From: a virus
Taxonomy: Duplodnaviria; Caudoviricetes
Virus record (IMG/VR): IMGVR_UViG_3300025466_000039
Location: 1 to 58,397 of that record
DNA: 58,397 bases
Reading direction: 5' to 3' (one strand)
The notes below the pieces were generated by a model, which worked only from the letters and a program-made list of their open reading frames with translations, did no database searches and was not told where the DNA came from. Both the position numbers and the translations under genes were made by a program. Below are positions 5,249 through 53,594 of the stretch, piece after piece; the stretch's first letter is position 1, and each line of letters starts with the position of its first letter.

Positions 5249-5967
5249 CAGTCCACAAAAAACTAATGCAGGCGAGGTGCCAACTTCTGCTTGCTAAACT
5301 AGAAAAGACCGGAAAAAACAGTTTTGCAGGCTACAAATACTTCGAACTCGGAGACTTTCTGCCTGCCGTACAGCTTATTTTCGAGAAAGTAGGGCTCTGT
5401 GGAGTCGTATCCTACGGGACAGACTTCGCCACCCTAACCATTACAGACGTGGATGACGGCACGATGGTGATCATCCAGTCCCCGATGGCCTCAGCATCCC
5501 TCAAGGGAGCGCACGAAATACAGAACCTGGGAGCTGTTGAGACTTATCAGCGTAGGTATCTGTGGATGACGGCGATGGAGCTCGTTGAGAATGACCCTAT
5601 CGATTCAGCCCCTCCAGTTGAACCGCAACATGTTGCGCCCAAGAAAAAGGATTACAAGGTTGAGAATCCCAAGCCCACCCTACACAAAGACTCCAACGAA
5701 TTCTCCGGACTGAAAGAGATTGGCGTTGGTGAAAACATGATGGTTGAGTGGAAGATCAAGGTTACCGACCCGATTGGAACAGCAGAGTGGAAAGAATCCA
5801 CCATAGAAGCCACCAAAATGGCCGTAGAGCTCACGAAATCAGCCGAGGACGTGCAGAGTATCTACCGCGTTAATAAAGCCGTCTATGAGGATTTAAAAAA
5901 GAGTTATCCAACGGAATTTGCCGAATTGTTGGATTTGTTCAAGGCTAAAAAGGAGTCATTCAAGTGA
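5245..5967 (+). CDS. erf: ERF-family single-strand annealing protein
   Basis: KTGKNSFAGYKYFELGDF and QNLGAVETYQRRYLW...END ERF motif; ATGA overlap with the exonuclease. Confidence 0.85.
   Translation: MTVHKKLMQARCQLLLAKLEKTGKNSFAGYKYFELGDFLPAVQLIFEKVGLCGVVSYGTDFATLTITDVDDGTMVIIQSPMASASLKGAHEIQNLGAVETYQRRYLWMTAMELVENDPIDSAPPVEPQHVAPKKKDYKVENPKPTLHKDSNEFSGLKEIGVGENMMVEWKIKVTDPIGTAEWKESTIEATKMAVELTKSAEDVQSIYRVNKAVYEDLKKSYPTEFAELLDLFKAKKESFK
5624..5637. promoter_or_regulatory. palindrome CGCAACATGTTGCG (dispersed motif copy)
   Basis: One of 8 perfect CGCAACWWGTTGCG copies. Confidence 0.7.
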
Positions 5968-6227
5968 GTGCAGATTACCCAAACAGCGGAACGTTGTTCA
6001 CCGCTAAAAAAATGTTCAACGAAAAGTCACCCCATTTCAATGGGTATATCGAGATCGAAAAGGACTTGCTCCTGAGTTTGATCGAGAAGTCCGATGGCGG
6101 CGAAGTCAAGATCAAACTTGACGGCTGGAAGAGGAAGGACAAAGAAGGCAATCACATGGTTTCAATAAAGGTAAATACTTATGAGAAAAAGCAGCAAACC
6201 CCAGTCGCAGACCCCTGGGACAATTAA
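5964..6227 (+). CDS. putative single-stranded DNA-binding protein
   Basis: NSGTLF...KSPHFNG.IEI...LDGW; acidic-aromatic DPWDN tail; follows ERF. Confidence 0.6.
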   Translation: MSADYPNSGTLFTAKKMFNEKSPHFNGYIEIEKDLLLSLIEKSDGGEVKIKLDGWKRKDKEGNHMVSIKVNTYEKKQQTPVADPWDN

Positions 6228-6402
6228 TGTTTCCCAGCGTACCGCAAAGATTCTTAAAGAAACAATGCAGTCACAGGAAAAACAAATTGAATCATTACAA
6301 GATTACATCAGAGAGTTGAGGGGTGAAATCCTCGACAAGATGGCAGTTATTGAATACTTGGAGAAAAGAATTGACAGAACCAATCCAGTTCGAAGCAATT
6401 AA
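6181..6402 (+). CDS. coiled-coil hypothetical protein (start uncertain)
   Basis: ORF filling the gap in the operon. Confidence 0.45.
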   Translation: MRKSSKPQSQTPGTINVSQRTAKILKETMQSQEKQIESLQDYIRELRGEILDKMAVIEYLEKRIDRTNPVRSN

Positions 6403-6793
6403 AACGTCCTTGAAGCAGTCCAAAGATGGGTACATACTCACTTTGGCTGTTCACCCGGACGACCTGCCAGACGACTTGATGAGAGACTTTATTGGCTCTC
6501 GGTATGTTGTTGTGATGGTCAGGATTGGCGATGATGAGATGCCACTATCTCGGGAAGACGAATTCCCTGGCGACATGGCGGTGAAGATCGCAGGAATGTT
6601 GTGCAGAGACAAGGAGTTTTGGGATTGGCTCAACAAAAAAGAATGGTTGATGGAGAGAAACGAAGCCGCTTGTGCAGAGTGGCTTTGTTCCTACCTTGAC
6701 ATTGAGTCCCGCAAGGAGCTCAAGACAAATGTTGAGGCAAGATCTTTATTCAACCAATTGCGCTCAAGTTTTGAGCACTGGAGAAAAGAGTGA
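6371..6793 (+). CDS. hypothetical phage protein
   Basis: TTG start after GGAG; LCRDKEFWDWL...IESRKEL motif. Confidence 0.7.
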   Translation: MTEPIQFEAIKTSLKQSKDGYILTLAVHPDDLPDDLMRDFIGSRYVVVMVRIGDDEMPLSREDEFPGDMAVKIAGMLCRDKEFWDWLNKKEWLMERNEAACAEWLCSYLDIESRKELKTNVEARSLFNQLRSSFEHWRKE

Positions 6794-7053
6794 AACTAAT
6801 CCCGTACAGCGTGTACCTGCCGCCAGAGTACTACGATCAAATCAAAGAACTGGCCAAGGAGCGCAAGGCTTCCAGCATGGTTCGAGATGCGATCTGCATG
6901 ATTATGGATGGCAATGACCAGTTTAAAGCAGGTTACAACAAAGGCTTGATGGATGCTACAAGGGTCGTCAAAAACAACAAGGAACTCAAGATGGCGGGCG
7001 GGGACTTCCTTAAAGAAGTACTCGAGCGAAACATCAAGAGGTTGCACAAGTGA
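6790..7053 (+). CDS. ribbon-helix-helix-like DNA-binding protein
   Basis: YSVYLPPEYYDQIKELAKER..SSMVRDAI. Confidence 0.55.
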   Translation: MKLIPYSVYLPPEYYDQIKELAKERKASSMVRDAICMIMDGNDQFKAGYNKGLMDATRVVKNNKELKMAGGDFLKEVLERNIKRLHK

Positions 7054-7256
7054 AGACGGCTCAAAGAATAGCCATTGCCATATCTCATGCGCTTAACGAT
7101 GAGATAGAAGAAAACCCAACAGAAGTCTTATTGGCTTTTGCTGGGTTATTTTGTAGCCTGTGTATTCATTGCAATGTGCCGGAAGACGACGCCATGAATC
7201 TCATCAGAAATATTTACAAGGACGTTTTAGCAGACGCCCAATCGGAGATGCATTAA
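7050..7256 (+). CDS. hypothetical protein
   Basis: GTGA-coupled ORF. Confidence 0.6.
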   Translation: MKTAQRIAIAISHALNDEIEENPTEVLLAFAGLFCSLCIHCNVPEDDAMNLIRNIYKDVLADAQSEMH

Positions 7257-7471
7257 TGGAAGACCGCGAAAACTTTCGAGCACTAGCGTCTATGTTTGCT
7301 TTGAGCAGACTGGCATACTACACGCCCATCGAGAATGAAGAGTTTGCTGTGCAAGAGGCCGCTCGTGTTGCGAAAACATGTGTTCGCTTGGCTGATGCTT
7401 TGCTCGATGAGCTAGACCCCCAAGAAGGGATTGTGGCACTCAAGAAAAGGAAAAAGAATGTACAGGAATAG
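7256..7471 (+). CDS. hypothetical protein (distant DYFAA-like helical family)
   Basis: TAATG coupling; ...CVRLADALLDEL. Confidence 0.6.
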   Translation: MEDRENFRALASMFALSRLAYYTPIENEEFAVQEAARVAKTCVRLADALLDELDPQEGIVALKKRKKNVQE

Positions 7472-7766
7472 ACCGCTACTAAACGCCTGTCGCGAGCTGC
7501 CTTGTCAGCATTGTGGCATCAGTGATGGGACTGTTGTGGCGGCTCATTCTAATCAACTGCGAGACGGCAAAGGACGCGGCCTGAAAGCTCACGATTATCG
7601 GGTTGCGTCACTCTGCTACAGGTGCCATATGGAATTAGACCAAGGCAAAGACTTATCTAAACAGGAAAGGATTGACTTGTTCGAAGCCGCCCATCGCAAA
7701 ACGATAGGCCAACTCTTTGAGAGAGGACTTATCTCTGTTTCTGCACCTGCGCAATCTCATCGTTAA
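7458..7766 (+). CDS. DUF1364/YbcO-like Zn-binding HNH-type nuclease
   Basis: CQHCG...TVVAAHSN...GKGRGLKAHD...LCYRCH. Confidence 0.7.
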   Translation: MYRNRPLLNACRELPCQHCGISDGTVVAAHSNQLRDGKGRGLKAHDYRVASLCYRCHMELDQGKDLSKQERIDLFEAAHRKTIGQLFERGLISVSAPAQSHR

Positions 7767-10700
7767 ACTGTTTCATTGTTTGAGTTTTGGCTGCTTCAAG
7801 CGCGCGTATATCTTTTATAGGTACCTTCGCTTGGAGCATTTCTTTTTTATCTTGGTTCATTTTGTTGACGTCGTTATAGTAACTATTAACTTCGTCAGCA
7901 AGAATTGCCGCAGGATATTGTTTATAAAACTTAGTTGGGTCTTGTCCGGCGGCCTCAATGTTCTTGACTTCATTTGCATACTTGTTCATCAATGTAACAT
8001 TGTTATAGAACTTGTCTTGAATGGCTGCCGCGCTTTTTGCATCACCATAGAAACGGCCAACAAGCGGAATCCTGTAACTTGGCTGAGATTCACTTGTGAA
8101 CCATGACTTAACTGTTTCTGCGCCTTTAATTACCTCGCGTGCAGCTCCTCCACCAACTTGACCAGCATAATAATCAAGCTCATCTGCTGTTGGGCTGATG
8201 TGGCCTTTTGTGAAGTGCGTACCTGGAGGTGAGCTGACATAGTTTAAGAACTCAGCAATCCATTGGCTAACTTGCGTTGCATTTTCCCTGCTCCTCATAA
8301 ACCCAGGTGTAGGTTTAAGAGCGGTGTCTTCTTTATAGATTGGCCGTCCAAACGCATCTTTATTCGTGGCTGTAGCCGCGATGGGATCAAGAACAGTTGG
8401 AGAAACCATTTGCAATAAAGAACCGCCACCCAATGGGTTAAATGCATCTGCAAATAAAGTGAGCACCTGTGTTGCCGCATCAGTCAATGGTTTTCCACCG
8501 CTGATTAAATGATTTTTACCAAGAACATATTCGGTAGCAATCCTTGCAACGCCAGGCACAACGTTATATCCAGGAGGCATTGGTAACGTTAAATACTTTT
8601 TATTGCCAATTGGAATAATGAAGTTTTTATCGCGAACATAGTCTGGGGGTTCATCTGCATCAAACCCAGCCGCCGCCATCCACAAGGCTTGGAGAACGCC
8701 AATGGTAAGACCGCCCGCAACAATCTTTCTTCCTGCCGGGCCTTTTAGCGTTTTTCCGACAAGAATTGTGCCCTGTACAGCTGGATTAAAGAATGCATAC
8801 AAAGCTTGTAAAAGAGGACTGGATTGACCTTTGCGGTTGAAGTTAATGGTGATGTTTTTAGCCAAACTGGCTGCACGTTCTTCGCTTAAATTATTATCAA
8901 GGGCGACTTTGAATACAGATAGACGAACAGCGTTTTCCATTGCTTCGTTATAGTCTGACAACATATCAAACAAATAGCGTGCTTTTTTCATGGCGCCTCT
9001 TTGAGTCTCGTCAGCCCACAATCTTTCAACAATTGTTGTATCTTTGCCGCTGAAGTTTCCTTTTGCAAACGACTCTCTAAATCCAGTTGTGCCACCAGCC
9101 CTGCGGAACCGATCATAAAGAGCAACATAGGGTCCTGTGACTGTTTGGTTTTTCCTGGCCGCCCTCTCATTTTGAATGATGGCAAACATTGCAGAAAATA
9201 CATGGCGAGCAACTTCTTTTTGCTTGCCAGCCAATGGAGTGTTGGTCAAATTAAATGCGGCGCCTTGAGCATCGCGCGCAAAGTTAATAACACCAAACAC
9301 AGGATTAAATTGTGTATTAACAGAGGCAAACCAACGCGTCATCATTGCCGTTGTGCCCAGCAGGCCACCCAAGGTCTGGGCGTCCAAGTTTGACATCGCC
9401 TGCGCCATTCTGATGGCTTTGGGATCCTTTGTATTAAAGAATATGTATCGATCTTTACCGTTGATCCTGACAGGGAATACATTGGGACTGCTTCTGAGGC
9501 CTGCATTAATGGTATAACGAACCTGTCCGGTTAAGGGATCAAGGCTGGGGGTCTTTGGCTCTTGGATGAAATTCTGTGCAGTAGAGATGGGCAGACCCAT
9601 CGAGACAAGCTCTTGATACAAGGCCGCTTTGTTTTTTACTGCATCGGGATTGACTGGTAGCCAAAAGTCTGGATTTGGGTTCTTTAATGCCAGGCCGTAT
9701 AGCGCACGACCAATTCGAGCTTTCTCAGATCGAATGATGGCACTCTCGCGTTGAATGGCTATGTTGGCAAGAATATCTACCACAGACTTTGATGACCCAT
9801 AGGCACGCTTCGATGCGCTTCCTTTGACCTGAAAGCCTTTGCCCAAACCGGCCCCATGATGCATGAAATCAAGCTCTTCCTGATCCCTCATGAGTGGAAT
9901 GTAATGCTTATAAGCTCTATTCCAATTGTCAATTGTTTCTTGAGTTTCTAGGCCGCGGTCAACAAGAATCTTTTGCGTGCCTTTAATAATGTCGTCTACT
10001 TTGGCGGCAATCTTTGCAAGCTCGGCCGCTTTTGTTGGATCAAGATTCTTAAAGTAATCTCTGGCCGCCTGAGTGCCAATACCAGAACCCGGCTCGTTAT
10101 CAACGTCTGCAAACCTGGGATTGATTTGTGCAATTGCATCATTACGCTCTTCGGCATGACGGTTATGCATATACTGCTCAAGATCGTCAATTGTAAGTTT
10201 AGCGCCTATTAAATCCTTGATGATTGGACTTAATTCATTTTTAAGAAAGTCTTTGATTTCATTGGCCGTCCTGCCATGATACAACTCCTCCTTCATGTAC
10301 GCATCAAACGCGTCATCAATCAGGCCAACATTTTTGGTAATCGCGGCTTGGACTTGCCTTGTATCAACGTGCTTGTCTGCAATTTTATAGTCAAGCGTGT
10401 TGATTAGATTGCCAAGTTTGGTCTCGGGCGCAAGATCCCAGGTCTTCTGCGGCGCAGGTCCGCCAAACACATTCCTCTTGCTCGGGGGACCGGGCGGGAA
10501 CATGTTGCCTTGTCGGCCTTGTGGGCTCAAGGGTGCAACTTGTTGCGATTGAGGAGCCGGCGGGAACATTTGGCCTTGGGATTTTAAACTAACACCAATA
10601 CCGGCGGCAACACTGGCTATAGACTGGCCTATTCTTTCGTTGGGCTTGCGACTGAATATATCGTTAAATACTTTATAGACTTCTGACTTGTGATTAACTC

Positions 10701-13700
10701 CAATAACCTTTTTGAGTCCTTCGAACAGGCGGCGCATTGCAAGCACAAAACGATCCCATCCAGAACCTAACTTCTTGTGCATCAACTTCTCGGCATTGAC
10801 AGCCCAATACTCTGATGGGGTTAAGAATTGATACCAGTTATTAAACTCTTCACGATCCTTTTCTTTGTTGCCGGTTTTTGGAACTGTAGGTATTGCAGCA
10901 ACAGCGGCGTCATATGTTGCATGACTAGGATTTGCAAAGAACACCTCAACCGCCTGGATATAATTTTTTGCTTGAGGATTTTGACTCTTTTTGACGGTTG
11001 CCTTGAAATCTCTTTCCCAAGCCTCAATCAAAGCAACCTTGGCCGCGGGGCTCATCATTTGTTCCATTGCGTGGGCCAACTCATGCCGAACGATTTCAGC
11101 CTTTATCACGCCTGCGGTTTTTTTATATAACTTAACAATTTGTTCAGCAAGATCAAACTCACCCAATGTGCTATTGAATATATCTTTAGATTGGATGACA
11201 GAGAGCTTTAGTCCCTCGAGTAAGAATGGTGCTTTTTCGTATGCAGCATGAATGACGTCATAGACTTCTTTTGCAATACCTTCTTCAGGCAATCCATTTC
11301 TTTTTGCTTTTTCGTAATTGTTTAAAAGCTGCCGAGCATATGTGTCAAAGTCCCCCGCAGTACGGGCTTCATCTTTGGTGTCCTCAATATAATCTTTAAG
11401 GTTTTTCGCAAGCGCATTTAAGTTTGTGAGCTCTTGCTGCAACGAAAGATTAGAGCCCTGCTTGGCCACTTCTTTCAAGACGTAAGCACGACGTTGGTTT
11501 ACTTTGGCATATTCCTGTACGGCGTTCTTTCTATCAATCTCCATTGTGGTTTGAGCACCAGGGTAGATTGGCATGTTGAAATTACGAACGGCAGCATTAA
11601 GAGGAATTTGATACTCCTCTTCCTTTGCGGCGATCTGTTCTTCACTTGGCTTTTTAGCCTCTTTAATTGGCGTCTTGATTTCTTTTGTAAGTGGCTCAAC
11701 GCGTTGGCGCATCATGTCATCACGATAGGTTGCCTTCCCGTTGACAAAGTCCATCGCATTTGTTGCACTATCGGGAACGATAAAGAGCTTGGCGCCATCC
11801 ATCTGAGATAGATGATTCTTAACCAAGTCACCAAACGTTGCCTTATCTACATTGATACAGCCAAACGAAAACCTAGAAACGTCAGGGCGTTCTGTCTTTA
11901 GGGCCGCCAGACGTTGTGCGGCGTCAGACTCATGCGTCCATACGGAATGCATGATGGTCATGGAGTAAGGGCCATGACGGCCTTCACCGGCGTGTTCGAT
12001 TACAAACACTTTGCCGTAATCATATTCACCGGCAGTCTCGGCCTCACCCTTAGAGCGGGATGCATCCCTCAAACCCAGGTTATATAGCCCAGCAGGCGTG
12101 ATCTTGTTGGCATCTATTTCATTAGATCCGGATGGCAAGAAATCACCCATGCTCTTGGACAACAATACCTTCTTATCCAACAGGAGAGATCCATCGGGAT
12201 TGAAGATAAAGTTTCTAGCCATCGGCTTGTCGGTCACGATAAAGAATTTATTGTTCTTCATCAACTCTTCTTTTAGAGTTGGATAAACGACGCTATAGAT
12301 CTGTTGTGCTGCTGGAGACATCTTTGCCTTTGCGTCCGCGGGGACTTCAGCATAGACGGTTTCAATGCGCGTCTCATATTGAGGAACCGCAATGATCTCT
12401 GGTTTGGTAATGAAGTTGGGATTGAGCACCATTGCAACAGATAGCAAGCTGTTTGCAATCTTATTGATGATAGGGCGAATCCTGTTCTTGATGGCCTTTG
12501 CGCCCTGCGTGATGAAGTTAAATACATCGTTATGCAGGCGCTCTAAAAATTCATTTGAGCCATGCTTGGCGCCGTACTCCTCCTCGAGCACAGCTTTTTC
12601 ATTGGCAGTCAACTTGTTGGATTCATCGGCAATCAATAACAATTGTTCTTCGTTACCAACCTCTTTAACCAAATCCGTCCCATCAATGATGTTGGACTCG
12701 TCTGTAATTTGTGGACCAAACTTGGCCAACAAAACACCAGGATCGTCTTCTTCTGCGAGAGCATCAATGATTGCCTGCTCTCTGGTTTTGCCTTTAGATA
12801 CGCCATCCAAAATAGCAGAACGCACTTTGCTGGCATCGGCTGTAACCTGCGTATTGGGTGACTCGTTAGCAACAATGTTTAATAAAGGATTGAGCTTGTA
12901 GTCAGATGCTGCGCCGAGAAAGTGAATCTTCTTTGGCTTTGACTCACGCAAGAAGTCAGCCAATTGATCTCTTGTGATAGCCTCTGCATTAGATGGAACG
13001 CCAACAATAAAGTCATCTGTACCCAGGGTCTTGACAACATGATCGTAAGCCTGCGATAGCGTCAATGCTCCATTTTGAATGGGAATCATTGGCTGAGTAA
13101 TATTGCCCTTGATTTCTGGAATGATCCAGTCTTTATGTTTATCAATTAAAGCTAACGACCCAGCTTGATCACCAACAATGTCTGGCATGACAATGATTGG
13201 ACGGGGATAATCCGTTTTTTCATCTTCGTTCAAATTATGAATTGCTTCAGTAATCTGATCGTACTTTGCAAGAATTTTATTAAAGTCAAGGGGCTTGGGT
13301 CCATTGCCCTTAAGGTTTTGCCTGAAGTTACTGAAAGCACCAGAGTCAATAAAGACCGGAACATTCATGTTCAAAATAGCGTGCGCAAGAGAGTCTATCG
13401 CATTGTTTGATAGTAACCCTACATCCACTCCTATTCCGTGGTTCTGATGGCTTCCTCGAGCCTTTACGCCTGACTCTAAATCGCTAACACCACTCATGCC
13501 TGATGCAAAGCGAACCATATCTTGTTTGATATTGGATAGAGCTCTTTGTTCTGGCGCCTCACCAAACAAATCCTCTTGGCCTTTGGCGGCGGCAATGTCG
13601 GCAGGACGATTACTTCCTGTCAAAGTAAACTCGCCAACGCCTTCATCGGCCTTGGCTTTAGCTTCCGCTTCTTTTTCGGCTTTTAATCGGTCTTCCTTGG

Positions 13701-25488: not shown

Positions 25489-26085
25489 TTAACCGCCTAA
25501 AACAGAAAGGGCGTGTTGGGTTAATTTGATACGTTCATCAAGACCAAATGTACCACCATTTATGCGTTTTGTTAAGCCCAGCCAGTTCTCCGCTTCAGCC
25601 AAATCGTTGCATCCGTGGGTCTTCCAGAACCACCCAGCAGACAGGGCGGCATACATGGGGGTCGCAACAAGTTGCGGGTTCATCACAAAATCCTGACCCA
25701 CTGCTTGTCCAAAGTGCCAGTAGTTATCATGAAAGGTGAGCTGGATACAGCCTCTTCCGTGAAAGCGATGCCCGTCCCCTGAAGCTTCATCTCTATTACC
25801 GCCTCGATTGGCGTAAATTCTGTTGGCAATCTTAACGGGATTGTGGGCGTAAAGCTCAACTTCTCCTGGCTTAAACTTGTGACCAAATTTTGCTTGAAGG
25901 ATTTCGGCTCGATAGTTGAGGTTTTCTTCCAGTGTTTTGAAATGGTTGCACTCGTGAGAGCACTGTCCGATAAAAGCTGCCTGCTTCTTGACATCGTTTA
26001 CCCCAAACGTAGCAAAGGTTGTAGTCAATGGCTCTGACCATTCAGCACCTATCCCGAGCTGATTGAGCTTCTCAGGGCTTAACAT
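25489..26085 (-). CDS. glycoside hydrolase family 19 endolysin
   Basis: FIGQCSHE..F..LEENLNY, GRGCIQLT..DNY, TKRINGG..GL.ER. Confidence 0.9.
   Translation of the reverse strand: MLSPEKLNQLGIGAEWSEPLTTTFATFGVNDVKKQAAFIGQCSHECNHFKTLEENLNYRAEILQAKFGHKFKPGEVELYAHNPVKIANRIYANRGGNRDEASGDGHRFHGRGCIQLTFHDNYWHFGQAVGQDFVMNPQLVATPMYAALSAGWFWKTHGCNDLAEAENWLGLTKRINGGTFGLDERIKLTQHALSVLGG
25663..25676. promoter_or_regulatory. palindrome CGCAACAAGTTGCG (dispersed motif copy)
   Basis: Perfect copy inside the endolysin gene. Confidence 0.6.
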
Positions 26086-28532: not shown

Positions 28533-28889
28533 TCATGCCGTTTGCCAAGGTAAGGGCGGTTGAATGGTCGCAGGGTTAATCTGTGACGCTAGATTTGAAT
28601 TGATTGCAGTCTCTGTGGCAGTTTGGTCAACGCCATTTGCCCAACACCATCCCACAACTTCTGATTGTGTTAACTGTGCATAGGGCGTGAATGATGATCC
28701 TGTAGCAGGTTCAGGGAATGAACAAGTGCCATAGACAGAAGATGTAAATGTAACAGGTGGAGTGGCAGTATTAGCCTCGGTTCCTGTGCATCTCCATCCA
28801 CAAGTTAAAACGACTTCAGAAAAGCCATTGATGGTTTGTGTGGATGCTGACATCCAATCTATACTCCATAAAATTTGTGCGTTTAACAC
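28533..28889 (-). CDS. tail-fibre-associated protein
   Basis: FTPYAQLTQSEVVGW...PPLPW; follows the fibre gene. Confidence 0.6.
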   Translation of the reverse strand: MLNAQILWSIDWMSASTQTINGFSEVVLTCGWRCTGTEANTATPPVTFTSSVYGTCSFPEPATGSSFTPYAQLTQSEVVGWCWANGVDQTATETAINSNLASQINPATIQPPLPWQTA

Positions 28890-32584: not shown

Positions 32585-33024
32585 GCGATCCTCATTATTG
32601 CATTAGTGCTGTTTATGGCAGGCATTGTGACTGTGAACGAGTTAGCACAAGTTTTATCTGCGCCAAAATCCAATAGAAAAACTGAAGCATTATTTTGACT
32701 TGAATTGTAAATCAAAGCACCACGAGCTGTAAACGCCGCTGGGCTCCACACTACATTTGCAAAAGACCAATAGGCCACTGTGCCACCTAAAGAACCAGAC
32801 GTTGGAGTTTGATTAATTGTCAAAATCTGTCCGCCTTGCGTATAACCTGTTCCAACTACCTCCCCAACAAGTTGGGTAGAGTACTGCGTTGTGGTCGCAT
32901 TCAACGTGGCCGCTGACGTAAATAGTGCAATTTTGAACGTGTTGGGATTGGTGGGCCCAAAGTTGTGTAAACCTTGAGCTATTTGAACTCTGAAGCTGGT
33001 CGTGGCAGTCTGGACTATGCTCAT
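32581..33024 (-). CDS. virion structural protein (paralog of 31915..32382)
   Basis: Same motif set; ARGALIYN, DFGADKT. Confidence 0.75.
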   Translation of the reverse strand: MSIVQTATTSFRVQIAQGLHNFGPTNPNTFKIALFTSAATLNATTTQYSTQLVGEVVGTGYTQGGQILTINQTPTSGSLGGTVAYWSFANVVWSPAAFTARGALIYNSSQNNASVFLLDFGADKTCANSFTVTMPAINSTNAIMRIA

Positions 33025-43606: not shown

Positions 43607-43793
43607 CGTTTTCTTCACTTTCTTTTAGCAGGTCTAGGAGGTGACGCTCTGCAATGGCCAGACCCGAAATAAGCCCGCAGAGTTTTTGATATTCTTCGAA
43701 AGAGCGGCATGCACCACCAGCCATATCATCGGCATAGTTGTTCATGTCAGTGCGTAATTTTTCGCGCAATACGCGTGCGAAGTCTTGGATCAT
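43599..43793 (-). CDS. hypothetical head-module protein
   Basis: G...FEEY...CG.I.GL motif after the portal. Confidence 0.7.
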   Translation of the reverse strand: MIQDFARVLREKLRTDMNNYADDMAGGACRSFEEYQKLCGLISGLAIAERHLLDLLKESEENDD

Positions 43794-46312
43794 TGTTTAC
43801 CTTTGTTGGCCTCTCGCCTTCTCATAGCAAGTTCGGCTTTGTGTTTAGCAATATCGGCACCGGTTTGTATGCCGATCTGTCTGTCAGCCGCGGCAGTCTG
43901 ATTTCTGTGTTTTGCAACATCAACAATCGTATTGAGTGCGGCCTGTTTCTCTTGTGTATCGATTTGGTTTTTGTGTTTGGCCATATCGATACCGGCTTTG
44001 TACGCACCTAGCTGTTGGTCGCCAGCTATTTTTTGTTGCTCTAAGGCTAGTTTTGCTTGAGCAATTTGCGCTTCCATCTGGGCCTTTTGGGCTTTGATTT
44101 GAACTTCTTGTTGTGCAATTTGCAGTTCTTGCTGTTGCATCTGTAGAACTGGGTCTTGCGCCTGTTGCTGGGCTTGCTGTTGTGCAGCCATTGCCTGATG
44201 TTGTTGCGCAACTTGTTGCGCTGCTTGGGCTAACATTCCAGACAATGCAGTCTCCAGTTGAGGAGTCATCTTTTCATCTTCGGGCGGCATTGCCATTCCG
44301 AGTTGTTCTTCTACCTGCTGACGATACATATACCCAGCATGCTCGCCCATATGCGCCTGAAGAGCCGCCATGATTTGATTGGCTTGGGGATTCTGACCAA
44401 TAATTGCCATGATCATTGGATCTTGCATCATCGACTGATGAACCTGAATATGCGCTTGATGATTCTGGAATAAGAAAGCCTTTAGCGGCTTGCCCTTAAG
44501 CGCCGCTTGGTTCTCAGATACAGGGTCCGTAGGTTTCTGATCATCTGGTAAAGGTACGAGTTTGTCCGCATTTTTAATTCCTAAAACATCTAACATTGAA
44601 CGGTGCAATTGCGGGAGATCATAAATCTGTGGCGCCATCTGGGCCATCTGTATCACAGCTTGATACTGCACCACTCTCTGAGAAAGAGTAGCCGCGTTAG
44701 GATCAGAAACCGGAATAATGTCTACTTTATCGTAATCGGCTTTCTTAGACTTCCTTCCGCCATACTCTGGGTCGTAGGTATAGTCTGGATCTGTGTAGTC
44801 TCGAATAATATTCTTGAGAAGTTTCAACTCCTGCTTTAAGGCAAAGTGTGTGCGCGCCTGCACTGCACTCAACACCTTTAGCTGTCTCTCAAGTAGAGCT
44901 AAAGTAGTTCCGACTGGTGTCTGGGCAGACATGTCGGACACACTCATATCGGCAGTAGCAGCAAACCTGCGGCCTTCTTCTACGATGTTATTGAGTAGTG
45001 TATAAAGAACTTGACTCGGTTCTTTGTAGGGTAAGGGTAATATAGAGTCGCGGATATTTCCTGACGCTACATCTACATCCCGGAATTCTCCCGGAGCAAT
45101 TGGGGTATCATCGCCCTTAATGCGAAGGCCCCTGGACTTGAGTCCCCCAGGCAAGTTTGATAAAGTTCCTGCATCAATGAGCTGTCGCATGATGCTAGTG
45201 GCAGATTTAGCAAACCCGCCAATGAGGTGGAAGAGCCCGAACCCATAAGCGCCAAAGCCGGGTATGTATTGGTAGTGGACAAAATGCTGTCTCTTGAGCC
45301 TGAGTTCGTCGCCTTCATTCCAGTTCCTCCTTACGGATAAGATATCATGAGTACCCTTAATTAAGGTCACGACATAAGGAACCATAATTCCAGTTTCGTT
45401 ACCTTCGTCATCAACATCCTCAAAACCATCCAATTCAAGATCAACGTGGCACTCATAAAGAGTATATCGTTCATCGTTCAAATCGCTAAATCCAGTCTCC
45501 TTGTCCTTCGCCATCTGGATATCTTCTCGCGAACGACTAGGATCGGGTAACTCTATATCACGGTAAAAACCGGCATTTTGTAACTTGACAATCTCATTCT
45601 TGGTCTTTCTCATGACGTGCGTCACTCGATAGCAGGTATCCATATCTGTAGTCCCGTAGGGAAGAATGATATCTTCGGCAGGGATAAACATAGAAACCTG
45701 GCGTCCTAGATTGGGATCGTAGTACACCTTCTTAAATGCAGAGCCAGTCGCTGGCAAAGACCAAAGCATGCGCTCATGTTCCGGCCTAAATTCTTTCATA
45801 ACTTCCGTCAATTCGTTGTTCATGTCGTCTTGAACATTGATGGATATTTCTCTGGTCTCGTTGGTTTCTTTGCCGATGATTTTGCTGCGAACCGGGCCTT
45901 GGGCTGGGAATGTTTCCGTGATCATCTCAGACTGGAACCTGACCACTGCCTCTGTAATCATAGGATGGAATACACCTGATGCACCGTCCCAGGGTTCTGT
46001 TCTCTCTTCTATATGCAGGCCGAGTAATTTAAGGCCCTCTGTATACGCTTTCTCCCAGTCTTTCCTGGAGTTCTTATCCTGATCAATACTTCTGTCTAAG
46101 TCTCCGGCCAATGTGGATAGCGCAGCTTCGCTTATTTCTTCTGCTAAATTATTGCTAAATCCCTCTTCATCACCTTTTTCCATATCAACCTCAAGATCGC
46201 CTGCTTTAATATGGACCGCTTCGGGATCTACGATTTCTATCTCCACAGGTTCCTGGTCTTGGGCTAAACTCTCAAGTCCAGCTGGGGCTTGGTTAAGTGA
46301 TTTGTCTATCAT
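43790..46312 (-). CDS. portal protein
   Basis: SR.DWE..Y..GL.LLG, HP...EA...FQ, GSAFKKVYYD, RQL.DAGTLSNLP.G; Q-rich C-terminal coil; follows terL. Confidence 0.9.
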   Translation of the reverse strand: MIDKSLNQAPAGLESLAQDQEPVEIEIVDPEAVHIKAGDLEVDMEKGDEEGFSNNLAEEISEAALSTLAGDLDRSIDQDKNSRKDWEKAYTEGLKLLGLHIEERTEPWDGASGVFHPMITEAVVRFQSEMITETFPAQGPVRSKIIGKETNETREISINVQDDMNNELTEVMKEFRPEHERMLWSLPATGSAFKKVYYDPNLGRQVSMFIPAEDIILPYGTTDMDTCYRVTHVMRKTKNEIVKLQNAGFYRDIELPDPSRSREDIQMAKDKETGFSDLNDERYTLYECHVDLELDGFEDVDDEGNETGIMVPYVVTLIKGTHDILSVRRNWNEGDELRLKRQHFVHYQYIPGFGAYGFGLFHLIGGFAKSATSIMRQLIDAGTLSNLPGGLKSRGLRIKGDDTPIAPGEFRDVDVASGNIRDSILPLPYKEPSQVLYTLLNNIVEEGRRFAATADMSVSDMSAQTPVGTTLALLERQLKVLSAVQARTHFALKQELKLLKNIIRDYTDPDYTYDPEYGGRKSKKADYDKVDIIPVSDPNAATLSQRVVQYQAVIQMAQMAPQIYDLPQLHRSMLDVLGIKNADKLVPLPDDQKPTDPVSENQAALKGKPLKAFLFQNHQAHIQVHQSMMQDPMIMAIIGQNPQANQIMAALQAHMGEHAGYMYRQQVEEQLGMAMPPEDEKMTPQLETALSGMLAQAAQQVAQQHQAMAAQQQAQQQAQDPVLQMQQQELQIAQQEVQIKAQKAQMEAQIAQAKLALEQQKIAGDQQLGAYKAGIDMAKHKNQIDTQEKQAALNTIVDVAKHRNQTAAADRQIGIQTGADIAKHKAELAMRRREANKGKQ
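44207..44220. promoter_or_regulatory. palindrome CGCAACTTGTTGCG (dispersed motif copy)
   Basis: Perfect copy inside the portal gene. Confidence 0.55.
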
Positions 46313-46320
46313 GATGTTCC

Positions 46321-46899
46321 TTAAATTAATTTCCAATTACCTGATGAATAATGTTGCGGCATTGCAACCCCACCGGACTTGTTACCTAAATCTTGTTTCA
46401 TATAGCTCTTTAATGAATCCAACATTTTGAGTTGGTCTTTGTTGTATTTCATTTCATCGTTGGCTTCTTTTGGCCATTGATTTAATAGATATCCTCGCAT
46501 TGCAGAGTCTGTTCCGTTTTGCACCGCATCTGCGGCCGGCCTGCCTTCGTCCATTGTTTGTTTAAAGTCACCAGAAACTGTAGCAAGTGTAGCAAGTTGC
46601 TTTGCAGTCATTGAATCTATTAAATCTTTTCTAGTTTTATTTGCAATGGGATCGACATGCATTAATTCGCCAGCCAAGTCGTGATGGGTAAATTCGTTGG
46701 GTTTGCCTATCATCACTCCGACTCTATCAATGGGAAATTCTTTTGGCCTTGGAGCGTTTGGAGCGCCGGGCTCATTTTGGGGCCATGTTTCAGCGTAGTC
46801 TTCCCCTGCATTTCCAACCATTACGATAGGATTATGTTTTGCAATAAATGGGTATTCTTCAACAGCTTTACTCATTAAATTGTTTATATAATCATCCAT
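46321..46899 (-). CDS. hypothetical protein between terL and portal
   Basis: 192-aa ORF ending KSGG...GNWKLI. Confidence 0.7.
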   Translation of the reverse strand: MDDYINNLMSKAVEEYPFIAKHNPIVMVGNAGEDYAETWPQNEPGAPNAPRPKEFPIDRVGVMIGKPNEFTHHDLAGELMHVDPIANKTRKDLIDSMTAKQLATLATVSGDFKQTMDEGRPAADAVQNGTDSAMRGYLLNQWPKEANDEMKYNKDQLKMLDSLKSYMKQDLGNKSGGVAMPQHYSSGNWKLI

Positions 46900-46907: not shown

Positions 46908-48401
46908 TTAATAGTATGCGGCTCTACGACGGTAGGAAGACGGTTCGTCTTTCTCGTCAGAATTTAAAGACAAAAATCCGCCTTTTCTGAATCTCAGCAA
47001 TGCTTGGGTTGTTGAGTCCACAAGGTCATCATGGTCTGAGTTTGGGAATGCGGCCAGTTCTTCAATTACTTCATCCGCCCATCTGGTGGGTGGCGCCCAG
47101 ACCTTTCCGCTTGCAAAAAGATCAGACACTGAGTTAATCCTCACCATCTTATCATTTCCCCTGCTGGGCGTAAACTCTTGCACCGGGATACCCATCGCCC
47201 TTAATTCATAAATAAGAGGAGCTCCAGAAGCCTTTGCCTCTACGATAAACGCATCTGGCTCCCAGTTTCTATACTCTTCTAATGCTACCTGCTTAAGCTC
47301 TGGGAACTCCATCCGTCTTTTAAATGCATCTAATAATATTACATGGGGATCTCGGACGTTCTCGTTAAGATAAAACACACCCCAGGTCGTACAAGCAGAG
47401 TAGTCGCTTCGTTCGTTCTTGGTAAAAGCCGTATCCCAAGACTGAATAATATACTCACATACAGGAACATTATCTTCCCATATCTTCCACCATTCTCTCT
47501 TGACGATAGCCCCTTCCTCCGAGGTAGGGGACTGCATGTATTGGGCATTCCATTTCGCAGCGGGGAGTTCGGACTTGAGTGCCAGCAACTCCTCTAGCCG
47601 CCAAAACTCTGGCCACAGGGGATTCCCGCTTGGCATAATTGCCGGCAACTGAATAACCTCCCACTTCTCTCCGTCCCTGTCGATCATGGACTGGATGATC
47701 TTGCCTGTTAAATCTTTCTTCGCCCATCTGGTCATCACCACCACAATAGCCCCGCCTGGTTGTAGACGCTGACGAGGTCCGGATGTGTACCACTCATAAA
47801 CTTTATCAAACACCGTTGGGTCTCCGGCCGCTAGAGCTGCCTCCTGTTCCGAATGCGGGTCATCGATAATAAGAAGGTCAGCTCCTTTACCCGTTACCGT
47901 ACCGCCAACACCGATCGCAAAGTATTCGCCATTCTTATTCGTACTCCATCTTCCAGCGGCCTTACTATCCGACCTCAGATTCACAAATGGGAATATCTTA
48001 TGGTATGTCTCAGAGGCTACCAGGTTCCTCACCTTACGGCCGAATCCAACAGCCAACTCGGCAGTATTGGATGTTTGGATAATCTTCTTCCCCGGGTATT
48101 TACCCAGGAACCAGGCGGGCAACAGAAAAGACGCAAACTCAGACTTGGTATGCCGAGGCGGCATGTTAATGATCAAACGCTTTAACTTACCACTAGCGAT
48201 CTCTTCAAACTTCTCTGCCATTAACTCATGATGCCGCCCATGTATAAACCCAGGCCACATCTCAGAAACAAACTGCATAAAGTCATCGGCGGCTTTCTCT
48301 ACGTTGAGGCTCTCCTTGTACACCTCAAACATATCCCACATCTCCTCCGCCAACTCCGGAGGCATGTTCTGTATCGCCGCTTCCATCTGCTCTACATTCA
48401 T
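46908..48401 (-). CDS. terL: terminase large subunit
   Basis: INMPPRHTKSE (Walker A), LLIIDDP (Walker B), SWDTA, HDDLVDS nuclease motifs. Confidence 0.95.
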   Translation of the reverse strand: MNVEQMEAAIQNMPPELAEEMWDMFEVYKESLNVEKAADDFMQFVSEMWPGFIHGRHHELMAEKFEEIASGKLKRLIINMPPRHTKSEFASFLLPAWFLGKYPGKKIIQTSNTAELAVGFGRKVRNLVASETYHKIFPFVNLRSDSKAAGRWSTNKNGEYFAIGVGGTVTGKGADLLIIDDPHSEQEAALAAGDPTVFDKVYEWYTSGPRQRLQPGGAIVVVMTRWAKKDLTGKIIQSMIDRDGEKWEVIQLPAIMPSGNPLWPEFWRLEELLALKSELPAAKWNAQYMQSPTSEEGAIVKREWWKIWEDNVPVCEYIIQSWDTAFTKNERSDYSACTTWGVFYLNENVRDPHVILLDAFKRRMEFPELKQVALEEYRNWEPDAFIVEAKASGAPLIYELRAMGIPVQEFTPSRGNDKMVRINSVSDLFASGKVWAPPTRWADEVIEELAAFPNSDHDDLVDSTTQALLRFRKGGFLSLNSDEKDEPSSYRRRAAYY

Positions 48402-48712
48402 TCCAAATCCCTAAACTTAATATAAACAGGCCGAACACTTCTGTCCTTATTCGCGAGTTTCTTACAAACCCCCAAATTACACAAGTTCCTAATCACCCTC
48501 ACCAAATTCGCCCGACCCTTATCCCCAGTCGCCCGCATAATGTCCTCGTAAGAAGGACCATACCCAAATTTCTTCCAATGCTCATCTATTACCAAAAACA
48601 CATTCCTCTCTTTAGGCGTCATATCCATCTCCATACACTCCGTCTCCGATAACCTACCAGGCCGAGACATCGCTTTCAATTCCTTCTTCGTATGTATGTA
48701 CTTCTTTTTCAT
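48398..48712 (-). CDS. LexA-like winged-HTH DNA-binding protein (no peptidase domain)
   Basis: MTPKE..V...I......GYGPSYEDI....G......V...L...G. Confidence 0.7.
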   Translation of the reverse strand: MKKKYIHTKKELKAMSRPGRLSETECMEMDMTPKERNVFLVIDEHWKKFGYGPSYEDIMRATGDKGRANLVRVIRNLCNLGVCKKLANKDRSVRPVYIKFRDLE

Positions 48713-48715
48713 TAC

Positions 48716-48812
48716 CGCAACATGTTGCGCTCTTAACGCTTTTTCTAAAAATATACACCCCCACCCTATTTTGTTTCAGAGACTGACGGGGGGGGTTCCG
48801 CAACATGTTGCG
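48716..48812. promoter_or_regulatory. two CGCAACATGTTGCG palindromes (48716-48729, 48799-48812)
   Basis: Perfect palindromes; the first lies 4 nt upstream of the annotated start of the LexA-like gene. Confidence 0.7.
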
Positions 48813-49497
48813 CTGGGTCTAGATCGGAATTTTCGATGGATTGAGTGAGTGGAGTAGTATGCGTAGGATCCCCGCCCGCCTCGAGCTCAGTCGCGGGGGG
48901 TGCCCCGTGGGTGGGGTCGCGCCCTTCGGATATCTCTTCCAGCAATGACCTCCCGCCTGAGCGCGCCGGCTTGGCGTCCACGTCCACCACTGATTTGATT
49001 CTCTCCAGTAGCTGAGCCTTGATGTCTCCGCTCTTAACGTGCGTGACTGTAGTCTCTTTGCGCTCCATGAATGCACCGACGTCGTACAGTTTGCCGATGA
49101 GTTCTAGCGCCTTCATTCGTTGGGCCGGTGGAAAATCCTCATCAATGGAGTGCTTGACCAATTGGTGGATTAGCAGTGCCTTTAATTCTCTAGGGGTTCG
49201 CAGTTTCTCCGCCTCAATCGCCAGCCTGTAAGCGTTCACCTCTTGGATCACGCGTGGATCACTGGCGAGCTTGTACGGGTCACTGGCGAGCGTATAGTCA
49301 CTCCGAGCGTTATATGTCTCTCTGTATGCTTGTCTCTTGCTCATTGTCCCCTCTGCTAGTTTACGCGCGTACTCTCTCTGTTTACTTGTGAGCGGTTGTT
49401 TTGTCCCTAAGATTGACTCTATTGGCGTGCTCTCCAGTGTTTCCCTTATTTGCGCCCTGGTTAACTTTTTAGTGGGCGCGCGTTTTGTTGCCGGCAT
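48766..49497 (-). CDS. terS: terminase small subunit
   Basis: LTSKQREYA.......SKRQAYRE.Y and RMKALELIGK motifs; GGAGG RBS; upstream of terL. Confidence 0.75.
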   Translation of the reverse strand: MPATKRAPTKKLTRAQIRETLESTPIESILGTKQPLTSKQREYARKLAEGTMSKRQAYRETYNARSDYTLASDPYKLASDPRVIQEVNAYRLAIEAEKLRTPRELKALLIHQLVKHSIDEDFPPAQRMKALELIGKLYDVGAFMERKETTVTHVKSGDIKAQLLERIKSVVDVDAKPARSGGRSLLEEISEGRDPTHGAPPATELEAGGDPTHTTPLTQSIENSDLDPAQHVAEPPPSVSETK

Positions 49498-49590
49498 GAT
49501 TCTACCCTCCAATTTCCTATACTTGACGCGAGTATAAACGCAAACAGCACTCCATGCAAACACCCCCAAAATCAAATTGTAGTCCTTATA

Positions 49591-49625
49591 AATCAACAAC
49601 TTACACGCGCTGGCACGATTTTTTC
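49591..49625 (+). promoter_or_regulatory. IHF consensus site plus sigma54-like -24 box
   Basis: AATCAACAACTTA fits WATCAANNNNTTR; then TGGCAC-GATTT-TTTC (the -12 GC is imperfect). Confidence 0.45.
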
Positions 49626-50734: not shown

Positions 50735-50738
50735 CACC

Positions 50739-50915: not shown

Positions 50916-50918
50916 ATT

Positions 50919-51617: not shown

Positions 51618-51633
51618 AACTACAAGGGAAACA

Positions 51634-51801
51634 ATGAAATATTCCGAATTTGACTATATCCAAGCCGGTTATCTATTTGAGAAAAACCGCATTAAGCTCG
51701 CACGATTTGAGCGTATGCTCGCGCGCGAATATCAGGAACACAAAAACAAAGCGGTCTTTTTGTTCAACCGCGGTCGATTGGAGGCTCGCTCATGTATCTA
51801 G
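51634..51801 (+). CDS. 55-aa early protein (not in ORF track)
   Basis: AAGGGA RBS after HH3; MKYSEFDYIQAGYLFEK... Confidence 0.65.
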   Translation: MKYSEFDYIQAGYLFEKNRIKLARFERMLAREYQEHKNKAVFLFNRGRLEARSCI

Positions 51802-51974
51802 TCTTTAACCACAATGCCCGATTTTTGGGCGACTTTGCGACCATGCATGAGGCTCAAACTGAGGCCATGCTCTATATGGGGCAAACCGGAAACCCCGCCT
51901 ACATCACAACCCGCAACTTGTTGCGCCCCGAAGAGCGCGACTCTTACGAACAATTTTTGGAGATACACGAATGA
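51792..51974 (+). CDS. early hypothetical protein
   Basis: GGAGG RBS; coupled; contains a palindrome copy at 51912-51925. Confidence 0.65.
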   Translation: MYLVFNHNARFLGDFATMHEAQTEAMLYMGQTGNPAYITTRNLLRPEERDSYEQFLEIHE

Positions 51975-52256: not shown

Positions 52257-52275
52257 AACTACAGGAGGCCAAAAA

Positions 52276-52512: not shown

Positions 52513-52515
52513 AAA

Positions 52516-52845
52516 ATGACTTGTTCAAAATGTAACTCACCTACAAGTAACACTTGGGATTGTGAATGCCAGTATGAAAAGGTAGACCCGATGCTACGGG
52601 CTAAGATTTTAGCCAAACTAACACCGCAAGAACTCGATCCAGAAATGTACTCTGATTCGGACACATGGGGCTCAACTGAGGTTGATGGGGTTATGTATGA
52701 CCTCAATTTTTGGTTTGATGAAGATCAATTCAATATCACCGCTTACTTTTTAACCGAGGAAGATGGTGTTGTTGTCACGGATAACTGTAGATTTTTTAGG
52801 ATTTTGTCTAAAACTGTTAAGGTAATAGACGAGGAGAATGAATAA
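52516..52845 (+). CDS. early acidic protein
   Basis: ORF in the early run. Confidence 0.6.
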   Translation: MTCSKCNSPTSNTWDCECQYEKVDPMLRAKILAKLTPQELDPEMYSDSDTWGSTEVDGVMYDLNFWFDEDQFNITAYFLTEEDGVVVTDNCRFFRILSKTVKVIDEENE

Positions 52846-53033
52846 TGGCACCAATTGACCAAGCATTTTTTGAGATGTATCGCGGATCTATTTCTGAGTG
52901 CGATGACGAAACAATTTTGCGCTTTTTGAAGGATAACGAATCAGTAGATAGTTTTGAAGGATATACACATTTGATGGATACCTATATTGCATTCGAGGCC
53001 GGTATTAAATACGCAAGGGAAAATCCAATATGA
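52845..53033 (+). CDS. early acidic protein
   Basis: TAATG coupling. Confidence 0.65.
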   Translation: MAPIDQAFFEMYRGSISECDDETILRFLKDNESVDSFEGYTHLMDTYIAFEAGIKYARENPI

Positions 53034-53158
53034 CCGCACAAGAACTATACGAGGCCTTAGAAAAAGCCGGCATTGACTTTGAGGTTGTCGAGATATTCGA
53101 AGGATGCCGGTGGCTTAGATTTGACGTTGAAGAAGAAACAGACGAGGAGAATGAATAA
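53030..53158 (+). CDS. 42-aa acidic protein (not in ORF track)
   Basis: ATGA coupling; MTAQELYEALEKAGIDFEVVEIFEG... Confidence 0.6.
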   Translation: MTAQELYEALEKAGIDFEVVEIFEGCRWLRFDVEEETDEENE

Positions 53159-53349
53159 TGATGGATCGAAGAATTAAAAGTTATGCGGTGCAAATTACTT
53201 GGGATGACGGAGAAACAGAAATTCGTGAGGATTTCCCGCCTATTCCCTACATCGAAGAGTGGATGGATGAGATTGAATTAGAAGAAAACAAAGCCTGCAA
53301 CATGATTGTGGATGATGTTGAAAAAGACGAAGGGGTGAATGAAGAATGA
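53158..53349 (+). CDS. early acidic protein
   Basis: TAATG coupling; very D/E-rich. Confidence 0.65.
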   Translation: MMDRRIKSYAVQITWDDGETEIREDFPPIPYIEEWMDEIELEENKACNMIVDDVEKDEGVNEE

Positions 53350-53556
53350 TAACCATATTTTTTGAGATCGATGGCCACGTCTTTGAGTCGGCCACATTTG
53401 CCAACGAGGGACTTTATATTGCGTGCTACGGGGCTCTTGAGCACTATGCGCGCCTCAACAACTTTGACATGACGGAGGTGGTGACATGATAAGGAGTCAA
53501 TTTGACTAGATGCGAAGAATTGGGAGTCTGTCAATCCATTGGGTGCGCAGACTGCC

Positions 53557-53594
53557 CGCAACTTGTTGCGGTGGAAGACCCGCAACTTGTTGCG
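53557..53594. promoter_or_regulatory. tandem CGCAACTTGTTGCG palindromes (53557-53570, 53581-53594)
   Basis: Located at the convergence of the early operon and the primase gene. Confidence 0.7.

Follow-up and report, generated by a model that had tools for sequence, protein, structure and literature searches.

Dispersed 14-bp palindromes and a ParA-less ParB-family protein in a tailed phage: candidate docking sites whose sequence changes between close relatives

The IMG/VR record IMGVR_UViG_3300025466_000039 is a linear virus sequence of 58,397 bases (46% G+C, estimated completeness 97%), and the whole record, which we refer to as the window, was analysed here. Its 70 open reading frames (ORFs) were scanned against Pfam (E 0.01) and PHROGs (E 0.001), and the gene content was that of a tailed phage. 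The subject of this report is a 14-bp palindrome, CGCAACWWGTTGCG, which is dispersed over the genome, and the protein that may read it, for which the strongest candidate is a ParB-like protein encoded on the minus strand between 55868 bp and 56674 bp. The ParB-like gene lies in a replication block together with helicase and primase genes on the same strand. A structural block, also on the minus strand, encodes a TerS-like protein (48766–49599), a winged helix-turn-helix (wHTH) protein, TerL, the portal, the major capsid protein, an SU10-type adaptor, an endolysin and a 3036-aa LPD38 virion protein. The plus strand carries a recombination block of a PD-(D/E)XK exonuclease, Erf and a ribbon-helix-helix (RHH) protein. 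No match to an integrase, CI-type repressor, ParA, methyltransferase or TET/JBP enzyme was found among the 70 ORFs.

Eight exact copies of the palindrome were found, starting at 5624, 25663, 44207, 48716, 48799, 51912, 53557 and 53581, together with two copies that carry one mismatch, at 10534 and 15457. A motif count over the window returned all ten coordinates given by the initial annotation, which had been made from the sequence alone. Ten copies with at most one mismatch compared with 0.02 expected, none of 100 dinucleotide shuffles reached this number, and the reversed, non-complemented control pattern was absent from the window. Sorted by mismatches, there were eight copies with none, two with one, one with two and nine with three; the 20 copies with up to three mismatches compared with 8.2 expected, the three-mismatch count being about that of the shuffles. 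As the classes drop so sharply, the excess consists of perfect and near-perfect copies. The central two bases of the ten copies were TT in six, AT in three, AA in one and TA in none. Tests of spacing evenness gave p 0.01 for 12 clusters of the core and p 0.29 for eight GCAAC clusters in the window, and p 0.41 in the closest complete relative, designated G001.

The copies within genes were compared with codon-preserving shuffles, a check that the initial annotation had proposed, in which synonymous codons were permuted inside each of 69 ORFs (52,530 nt). Coding sequence held five exact copies, compared with a mean of 0.247 in the shuffles (maximum 2; none of 1000 reached five), seven copies with at most one mismatch (0.62 in shuffles; 0/200) and 11 copies of the 10-bp core CAACWWGTTG (1.40 in shuffles; 0/1000). 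The shuffles fell so far short of the observed counts that the amino acid sequences do not explain the motif. Translation agreed with the peptides first read at three of the copies, PQHVA (5624), PQLVA (25663) and AQQVA (44207), and gave AQHVA at 48799, SQQVA and EQQVA at the two one-mismatch copies and RNLLR at 51912. Six of the seven intragenic copies were in one frame, xCG-CAA-CWW-GTT-GCG, which reads (P/A/S/E)-Q-(H/Q/L)-V-A and falls in P/Q/A-rich stretches. The copy in the portal gene (44207–44220; gene 43790–46336, minus strand) encodes part of the peptide AQAAQQVAQQH, which is the same in a close relative, L005; both flanking alanine codons are GCG in the window and GCC in L005. As the peptide is unchanged while both codons differ, this is direct evidence of selection on the DNA word rather than on the protein. 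Together with the codon-preserving shuffles and the abrupt fall in number beyond one mismatch, these synonymous codons indicate that selection acts on the sites as DNA. The idea of a restriction or methylation target was discarded: Pfam gave no methyltransferase match in the window, and such sites are expected to be avoided rather than enriched.

Analysis of related phages revealed that the palindrome itself is not retained. A TerL search identified approximately 600 related loci; the exact window motif was present in none of the best 80 of these, and ten larger related records held a single one-mismatch copy in total. Scanning IMG/VR for CGCAACATGTTGCG returned 116 stretches, and the 80 listed of these 116 were all on separate contigs, none of them multi-copy. 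Among the matches listed from a scan for CGCAACTTGTTGCG, relatives showed only the endolysin site, and the others came from an unrelated group of phages, G011–G013. L005 shares 97.6% TerL identity and 96.4% portal identity with the window and has no exact window copy; L005 and G001 instead carry YCAAC-WW-GTTGR at aligned places, and G001 has 26 core sites (0.51 in shuffles) compared with 14 in the window. A further relative, L128, has eight copies of TGCAAC-WW-GTTGCA in 20.8 kb. De novo counts in other lineages yielded TGGAAC-WW-GTTCCA, GTAAC-WW-GTTAC, GGCAC-TA-GTGCC, TGGTAA-TA-TTACCA, TTAAC-N3- or -N4-GTTAA and GG(T/A)AACGTT(A/T)CC. These lineage palindromes were present in 3–26 copies each, against approximately 0.5 or fewer in dinucleotide-type shuffles, a generous comparison as the motifs were chosen post hoc; de novo counts found no enriched palindrome in G002. 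The relatives' spacers ranged from 0 to 4 bp and some half-sites were asymmetric, for example GTCAAC/CCCAAC or ACATTAAC/ACTTTAAC.

The positions of the sites were better conserved than their sequence. Of the loci with a called motif, with overlapping loci kept in, 44 of 55 had a site in the 250 bp before the wHTH start and 19 of 55 had one in the 300 bp that follow the primase stop. In 15 of 53 loci, spread over five clades that do not include the window, a site was inside the ParB-like gene. The initial annotation had proposed to check co-occurrence of motif and ParB-like gene in related phages; the exact motif was not kept, while lineage-specific palindromes were found at the same places. 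The different motif of L005, with its near-identical TerL and portal proteins, and the other palindromes of G001 and further relatives indicate a determinant that is phage-encoded and fast-evolving. Two window-type GCAAC-AA-GTTGC sites, 24 bp apart, were also present after the primase gene of L102 (5054–5091), in which the ParB-like helix-turn-helix (HTH) and the remaining sites were of the L005 type; L102 carries both types and so shows that lineages have exchanged the site-bearing segment mosaically.

Several individual sites in the window could be compared with aligned places in relatives. The exact copy CGCAACATGTTGCG at 5624–5637 is in a linker of the Erf-like gene (5209–5967, plus strand), and G001 has three sites of its own type in the equivalent region. 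The one-mismatch copies TGCAACTTGTTGCG (10534–10547) and CGCAACTTGTTGCT (15457–15470) are both in the LPD38 virion protein gene (7729–16839, minus strand), and G001 has a core site at the place aligned with the former. At 32863–32876 the window carries CCCAACAAGTTGGG, a site of the type found in its closest relatives, with two mismatches to the window motif. The copy at 51912–51925 is in a small plus-strand ORF (51792–51974), and L005 has a site of its own type at the aligned place. The endolysin copy (25663–25676; gene 25489–26085, minus strand) was different in that six loci from the motif scan aligned with it at 78–96% identity, and no other GCAAC-WW-GTTGC site was present in the five records (6–35 kb) of these loci that were searched. 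Relatives without further sites of this kind conserve the copy as part of the gene, and it is probably ancestral and outside the lineage-specific set.

The pair at 48716–48729 and 48799–48812 occupies the best-conserved place. The first copy ends 3 nt before the ATG of the wHTH gene, so that the LexA-like gene with an upstream copy described initially is present, with a gap of 3 nt rather than 4 nt. The second, 83 bp away, is in the last codons of the TerS-like gene, and relatives have palindromes of their own types at the aligned places. Between the two copies is a weak sigma-70-like element (48750–48779), CTGAAA-N18-TATATT, with 9 of 12 matches, and the copy at 48716 is approximately 20 nt downstream of its -10. 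The promoter scan overall was not above shuffles (nine found, 7.0 expected), and the element is treated here as a weak lead.

The last two exact copies are 24 bp apart (53557–53594) in the gap between the convergent plus-strand block and the primase gene (stop at 53596). Here the evidence bears on the proposal that the palindromes act as nucleic acid structures, either as CUUG-loop RNA hairpins serving as terminators or processing sites or as DNA cruciforms. These two copies can pair with each other to -24 to -27 kcal/mol (z -3.2 and -4.5) in a convergent gap. Single sites, however, were weak (-4 to -8.7 kcal/mol), with five of six inside the shuffle range, and the sites occur in both orientations relative to genes. 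No close T-run was present in the site flanks, TTTTT following 10 nt after the stem at the 53557/53581 pair. In addition, spacers in the relatives range over 0–4 bp and their asymmetric half-sites would mispair, both of which favour a protein site. A structural role for the palindromes is therefore considered highly improbable. Hairpins of the form AAGACCCC-N4-GGGGTTTC, repeated between small genes in L005 and L102–L104 (in L104 at 5746, 6387, 7339 and 8056, for example), look like intrinsic terminators and are separate from the palindrome family.

The ParB-like protein (55868–56674), which may start at the ATG at 56644, consists of an N-terminal ParB/sulfiredoxin-like domain, an HTH at approximately residues 129–150 and a long C-terminal coiled coil. 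The structure model had a predicted local distance difference test (pLDDT) score of 80, and helices 109–121, 130–137 and 141–159 were modelled at pLDDT of approximately 90. Foldseek matches included ParB-CDP (3.1e-8), Noc, KorB, PadC and Srx; those to ParB-CDP, Noc and KorB had E values of 3e-8 to 2e-6 and covered approximately 140–230 columns of the N-domain and HTH, with alignments of 140–160 columns running through the HTH. A profile search of PDB matched Myxococcus xanthus ParB (8.9e-8) and sulfiredoxin (1e-7), PHROG 1033, 'ParB-like partition protein', matched at 1.1e-16, and Pfam gave a weak HTH_36 match at residues 129–154. Box I, T-Q-(S/P)-R, was retained, with Q25 and R27 invariant. 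The profile and Foldseek results thus bear out the initial assignment of a ParB N-domain plus HTH, as a ParB/Noc/KorB fold, and the absence of a recognisable ParA was confirmed, as no ParA/CbiA/AAA_31-type match was present among the 70 ORFs.

Megablast of the window between 40000 bp and 58397 bp against a phage collection gave no matches. Searching bacterial genomes with a profile of the ParB-like protein found full-length relatives at 34–39% identity in a few Betaproteobacteria, Flavobacterium, a Peribacteraceae metagenome-assembled genome and others. No prophage copy of the window phage was among them. The N-terminal 150 residues (N-domain and HTH) had at least ten homologs with 35–49% identity scattered in one Planctomycetes chromosome (loci L318, L322, L325, L326, L330, L334, L346, L348, L351 and L367), which suggests a multi-copy element or family, and further homologs were found in Nostoc and other cyanobacteria.

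Four DNA-binding candidates were conserved in the relatives: the ParB-like, wHTH, TerS-like and RHH proteins. Two of these are poor candidates for reading the palindromes and were rejected: the first 41 residues of the RHH protein, its DNA-reading part, are identical in the window and G001, and the core of the TerS-like protein is near-identical in the window and another relative, L105. A protein resembling the C-terminal domain of the RNA polymerase alpha subunit (1736–2128, minus strand) was also rejected, as it differs from its G001 counterpart by one residue in that domain.

The wHTH protein (48398–48712, minus strand; 104 aa) overlaps the TerL start and is a homolog of the N-terminal DNA-binding domain of LexA, as seen both by profile (E 1.3e-6) and by Foldseek (root-mean-square deviation 1.2 Å over 65 columns). 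If it were the reader, the palindromes would be its operators: the pair before its own gene would provide autoregulation and control of TerL and portal, and the remaining copies would be operators scattered over the genome. A variant gives it a role in packaging recognition, as it abuts TerL. The upstream site in most relatives fits this proposal, as do the two window copies that bracket the promoter-like element, one of them abutting the start codon. The xxAAC...GTTxx shape of the palindromes also resembles the LexA boxes of Gram-positive bacteria, GAAC-N4-GTTC, and the wHTH recognition helix differs between most motif clades. However, the protein has no obvious dimerisation domain, since the chain stops after the wing and no Peptidase_S24 match was found with Pfam, and helix and motif do not change together throughout. 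One wHTH helix was identical across the TTAAC-N3, TTAAC-N4 and ATAAC-N3 groups, whereas the differing G003-type and L018-type helices were both found with TGGAAC.

The clearest case was L105. Its wHTH protein matches that of the window at 89 of 104 positions, including the whole recognition helix and wing. Its six core sites, however, have YCAAC in all 12 half-sites, and one of these sites is 33 nt before the wHTH gene. The ParB HTH of L105 is of the L005 type, with D for K before 'VS' and I and R for Y and K in the helix. A phage with the window's wHTH helix, another motif and an L005-type ParB HTH favours the ParB-like protein over the wHTH protein. Among the DNA-binding proteins compared, the ParB-like HTH alone changed with the motif, and the wHTH protein is in our view an unlikely reader, though a serious rival candidate.

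To describe this association, the HTH of 96 ParB-like orthologs was tabulated against the commonest palindrome of each locus. The residue after 'VS', which caps the recognition helix, was D where position -5 of the site was C (window, L005 clade and L128 clade), H or R where it was G (GGAAC, GGCAC and GGTAA) and S, N, A or V where it was T. The residue before 'VS' was K or N with G at -6, and D, Q or L with T or Y. These pairings recurred in separate clades of the ParB-like tree and are chemically ordinary for HTH proteins.

Among the matches listed, the only other phage type with many copies of the window's 14-mer was G012, a member of the G011–G013 group. G012 is a siphovirus-like phage of 83.6 kb and 58.7% G+C with 26 exact copies (loci L308–L312; for example at 28648, 42164 and 69518), which are evenly spaced (coefficient of variation 0.53 compared with 0.95, p 0.0004). 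At least seven adjoin strong TTGACA-N17-TATACT promoters, read by eye, and are located 20–36 nt upstream of the -35 or at approximately +5. The homologs that G012 and the window have in common were distant TerL and helicase proteins, and a wHTH homolog was not found in G012, which also speaks against the wHTH protein as reader. PHROGs identified two ParB-fold proteins in G012, one of which combines an IDGRHRF box with a canonical-looking HTH and a C-terminal zinc ribbon and is followed, 2 nt past its stop, by a copy of the motif. A search for relatives of the G012 ParB-like protein P0001 returned G012 alone. Around some of the G012 copies there were repeats of approximately 90 nt with 72–85% identity.

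The occurrence of so many evenly spaced copies beside promoters in a phage this distant supports another factor as the reader, which could be a small phage protein or a host protein with strain-dependent specificity; approximately 40 ORFs of the window had no family match in Pfam or PHROGs and could include the former. Set against this, motifs differ between phages whose TerL proteins are 98% identical, and L102 combines both types of site; a linked phage gene fits these observations better. The window and G012, at 46% and 58.7% G+C, would be unlikely to share one host. As the motif was tracked by the ParB-like HTH alone among the DNA-binding proteins compared, we hold another factor to be rather improbable.

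The palindromes are therefore best described as predicted docking sites of the phage's own ParA-less ParB-family protein, dispersed over the genome and co-evolving with it, a reading in which we place about half of our confidence. It is consistent with the sites inside the ParB-like gene of relatives and with the G012 copy that adjoins a ParB-fold gene. A number of observations weigh against it. Pfam gave no ParBc match for the protein at E 0.01, and its box II is DGFHRY(F/H)AHKRA, with D64, G65, H67, R68 and A71 invariant, rather than GERRxRA, the arginine patch that binds and hydrolyses CTP; the DGFHRY segment is nearer to the G-C-H-R of sulfiredoxin. There is no copy of the palindrome in or beside the ParB-like gene of the window, the nearest being at 53581, and the most conserved place of all is the one before the wHTH gene, as an autoregulated wHTH protein would give. 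Residue and base agreed in 24–26 of the 26 labelled rows of the ParB-like tree, where 26 of 44 rows were labelled by inspection and 17 without a clear motif and one mixed row were left out; this reduced to 1–3 phylogenetically independent pairs per trait, none discordant, and sign tests were not significant (p 0.25–1). One 15-residue ParB signature was found with spacers of 3 or 4 and with differing outer flanks in the TTAAC groups, so that the signature is not a full predictor. Finally, an ortholog of the window protein was not found in G012, and the HTH of the ParB-type protein of G012 differs from that of the window. With no ortholog and a different HTH, the shared 14-mer is either convergence or a sign of another factor in common; we read it as a case in which a different HTH protein, of the ParB type or not, has converged on a common kind of half-site.

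Of the two roles that had been offered at first, the parS/NBS-like system is partly supported, by the ParB fold, by the lack of ParA and by the comparative evidence over the wHTH protein, but the motif itself is not kept in relatives. The alternative, a global operator network, is a possible reading in view of the pair around the promoter-like element before wHTH and TerL as the best-conserved place.

Enrichment of the palindromes, conservation of position with turnover of sequence, the fold of the protein and the association of half-site with HTH are the observed features from which we infer binding, dimer geometry, a nucleotide switch and a biological role. The ParB-family protein would be expressed early and dock at the palindromes as a dimer, probably formed through the C-terminal coiled coil, so that each HTH reads one (C)GCAAC half-site. 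Docking would be best conserved at the pair that brackets the promoter-like element before wHTH, TerL and portal and at the one to three sites after the primase gene, with the others dispersed. By analogy with KorB, Noc and VirB, the sites may nucleate a larger complex by sliding or spreading, which might set the expression of packaging and structural genes, coat the phage DNA, or both. Each lineage would have its own matched protein and sites, diversified among close relatives. A change in the first residues of the recognition helix would be followed by re-tuning of sites over the whole genome through point mutation, including synonymous changes and changes in tolerant P/Q/A-rich linkers.

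A further and more speculative proposal, which we consider doubtful, is that the ParB-family protein and its 10–26 palindromes constitute a lineage-private 'address code', in which the protein loads on and covers the phage chromosome. The phage's own DNA could then be told from host DNA and from that of co-infecting close relatives, for expression, protection or packaging, and helix residues and sites would change rapidly and jointly under the pressure of conflict between relatives. If true, such a code would extend to Cluster O mycobacteriophages, whose dyad repeats it would explain, and to G012 with its 26 evenly spaced copies, and would provide a readable recognition code (D–C, H/R–G, K–G) for the orphan ParB-like proteins of phages, a large family. 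Genes for these proteins are common in phages, and most have no assigned role. The phages compared here amount to a natural experiment, as close relatives carry different palindromes at matching positions and the ParB-fold HTH changes with them. If binding is confirmed, the docking-site reading would give these orphan ParB proteins a candidate function and a simple residue-to-base code, and would be an example of genome-wide re-tuning of sites, including at synonymous positions of essential genes.

Two other features of the window were observed. The protein encoded between 1736 bp and 2128 bp has 130 aa, matches Pfam RNA_pol_A_CTD (E 3.6e-17), the C-terminal domain of the bacterial RNA polymerase alpha subunit, and shows 91% identity to its G001 counterpart; it could act on host transcription as a decoy or an adaptor. 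Additionally, a second exact 14-base repeat, ATGGGTAGGACTGA, is present five times on the minus strand (267–280, 599–612, 56986–56999, 57542–57555 and 57959–57972) compared with 0.26 expected with up to two mismatches. It encodes E-W-V-G-L-T-(D/E)-(D/E)-E in frame in five small minus-strand ORFs at both ends of the record and, as it encodes one peptide in all five, identifies them as a family of small early genes that are paralogs.

Among known systems, the closest mechanistic models are Noc/NBS and KorB/OB. Noc of Bacillus is chromosomal and membrane-tethered and acts in nucleoid occlusion, and a few HTH residues set the specificity of ParB and Noc. It resembles the window protein as a ParA-less ParB-family protein with a palindrome spread over the whole replicon, and was among the best fold matches; the window protein differs in being encoded by a phage and in its long coiled coil. 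KorB is a plasmid-encoded, CTP-dependent sliding clamp and global repressor with a GERR box, which works with IncC (ParA) and with KorA/TrbA. Long-range silencing by KorB from dispersed operators is described in the available part of PMC11790492. KorB/OB of RK2 and the window share a ParB fold with HTH and a short palindrome repeated many times on a small replicon, with some copies near promoters and others far away or intragenic; unlike RK2, the window has a phage replicon, no ParA, a DGFHRY box II, a C-terminal coiled coil and an unrelated site sequence.

Cluster A stoperators, the P1 C1 sites and the phiC31 CIRs are sets of tens of 13–17-bp repressor sites, some in coding regions, and in Cluster A related phages have diversified in the specificity of their repressors along with the sequence of the sites. 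Stoperators lack symmetry and follow the direction of transcription, and all of these sets are read by immunity repressors of temperate phages. The window differs from these in its palindromic sites, in the lack of any match to an integrase or CI-type repressor and in the ParB fold of the favoured reader. Partition by ParABS is also unlike the window, which has no ParA-type Walker ATPase and no parS cluster in or beside the ParB-like gene. VirB/virS and BisD, according to the abstracts of the reports on them, are ParB-like CTP switches that activate genes and have no partition role. They share with the window protein the ParB fold and, as proposed for it here, specific loading sites and an effect on transcription at a distance, but have few sites, a chromosomal, plasmid or integrative and conjugative element context and an anti-silencing role of which the window phage gives no sign. 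A phage ParB with no DNA-binding domain activates thymine dioxygenases (5mYOX), as stated in the available part of PMC13229309; a modification pair of this type was rejected for the window, as no TET/JBP match was found among its ORFs and its ParB-like protein has an HTH.

The closest descriptive precedent is the 17-bp dyad repeat of Cluster O mycobacteriophages (Corndog and relatives), as described in the available part of PMC4351075. More than 30 copies of TGTTCGG-N3-CCGAACA are found genome-wide, approximately one third of them in coding regions, with a centre of mostly TTT/AAA, no orientation rule and an unexplained function. These phages are not evidently temperate and encode a protein with a ParB-like domain and no parAB. 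In that part of the paper the authors predict a dimeric DNA-binding protein with a role other than promoter control, make no connection between the repeats and the ParB-like protein and report no variation in five genomes (PMC4351075). The host, phage type and motif differ from those of the window, where, in addition, relatives differ in motif in step with the ParB-like HTH. In our literature search no report came up in which a ParB-like reader is connected with dispersed palindromes of phages, or in which such sites turn over between relatives, which is not proof of absence. The natural set of site and protein variants among these relatives makes the question directly testable.

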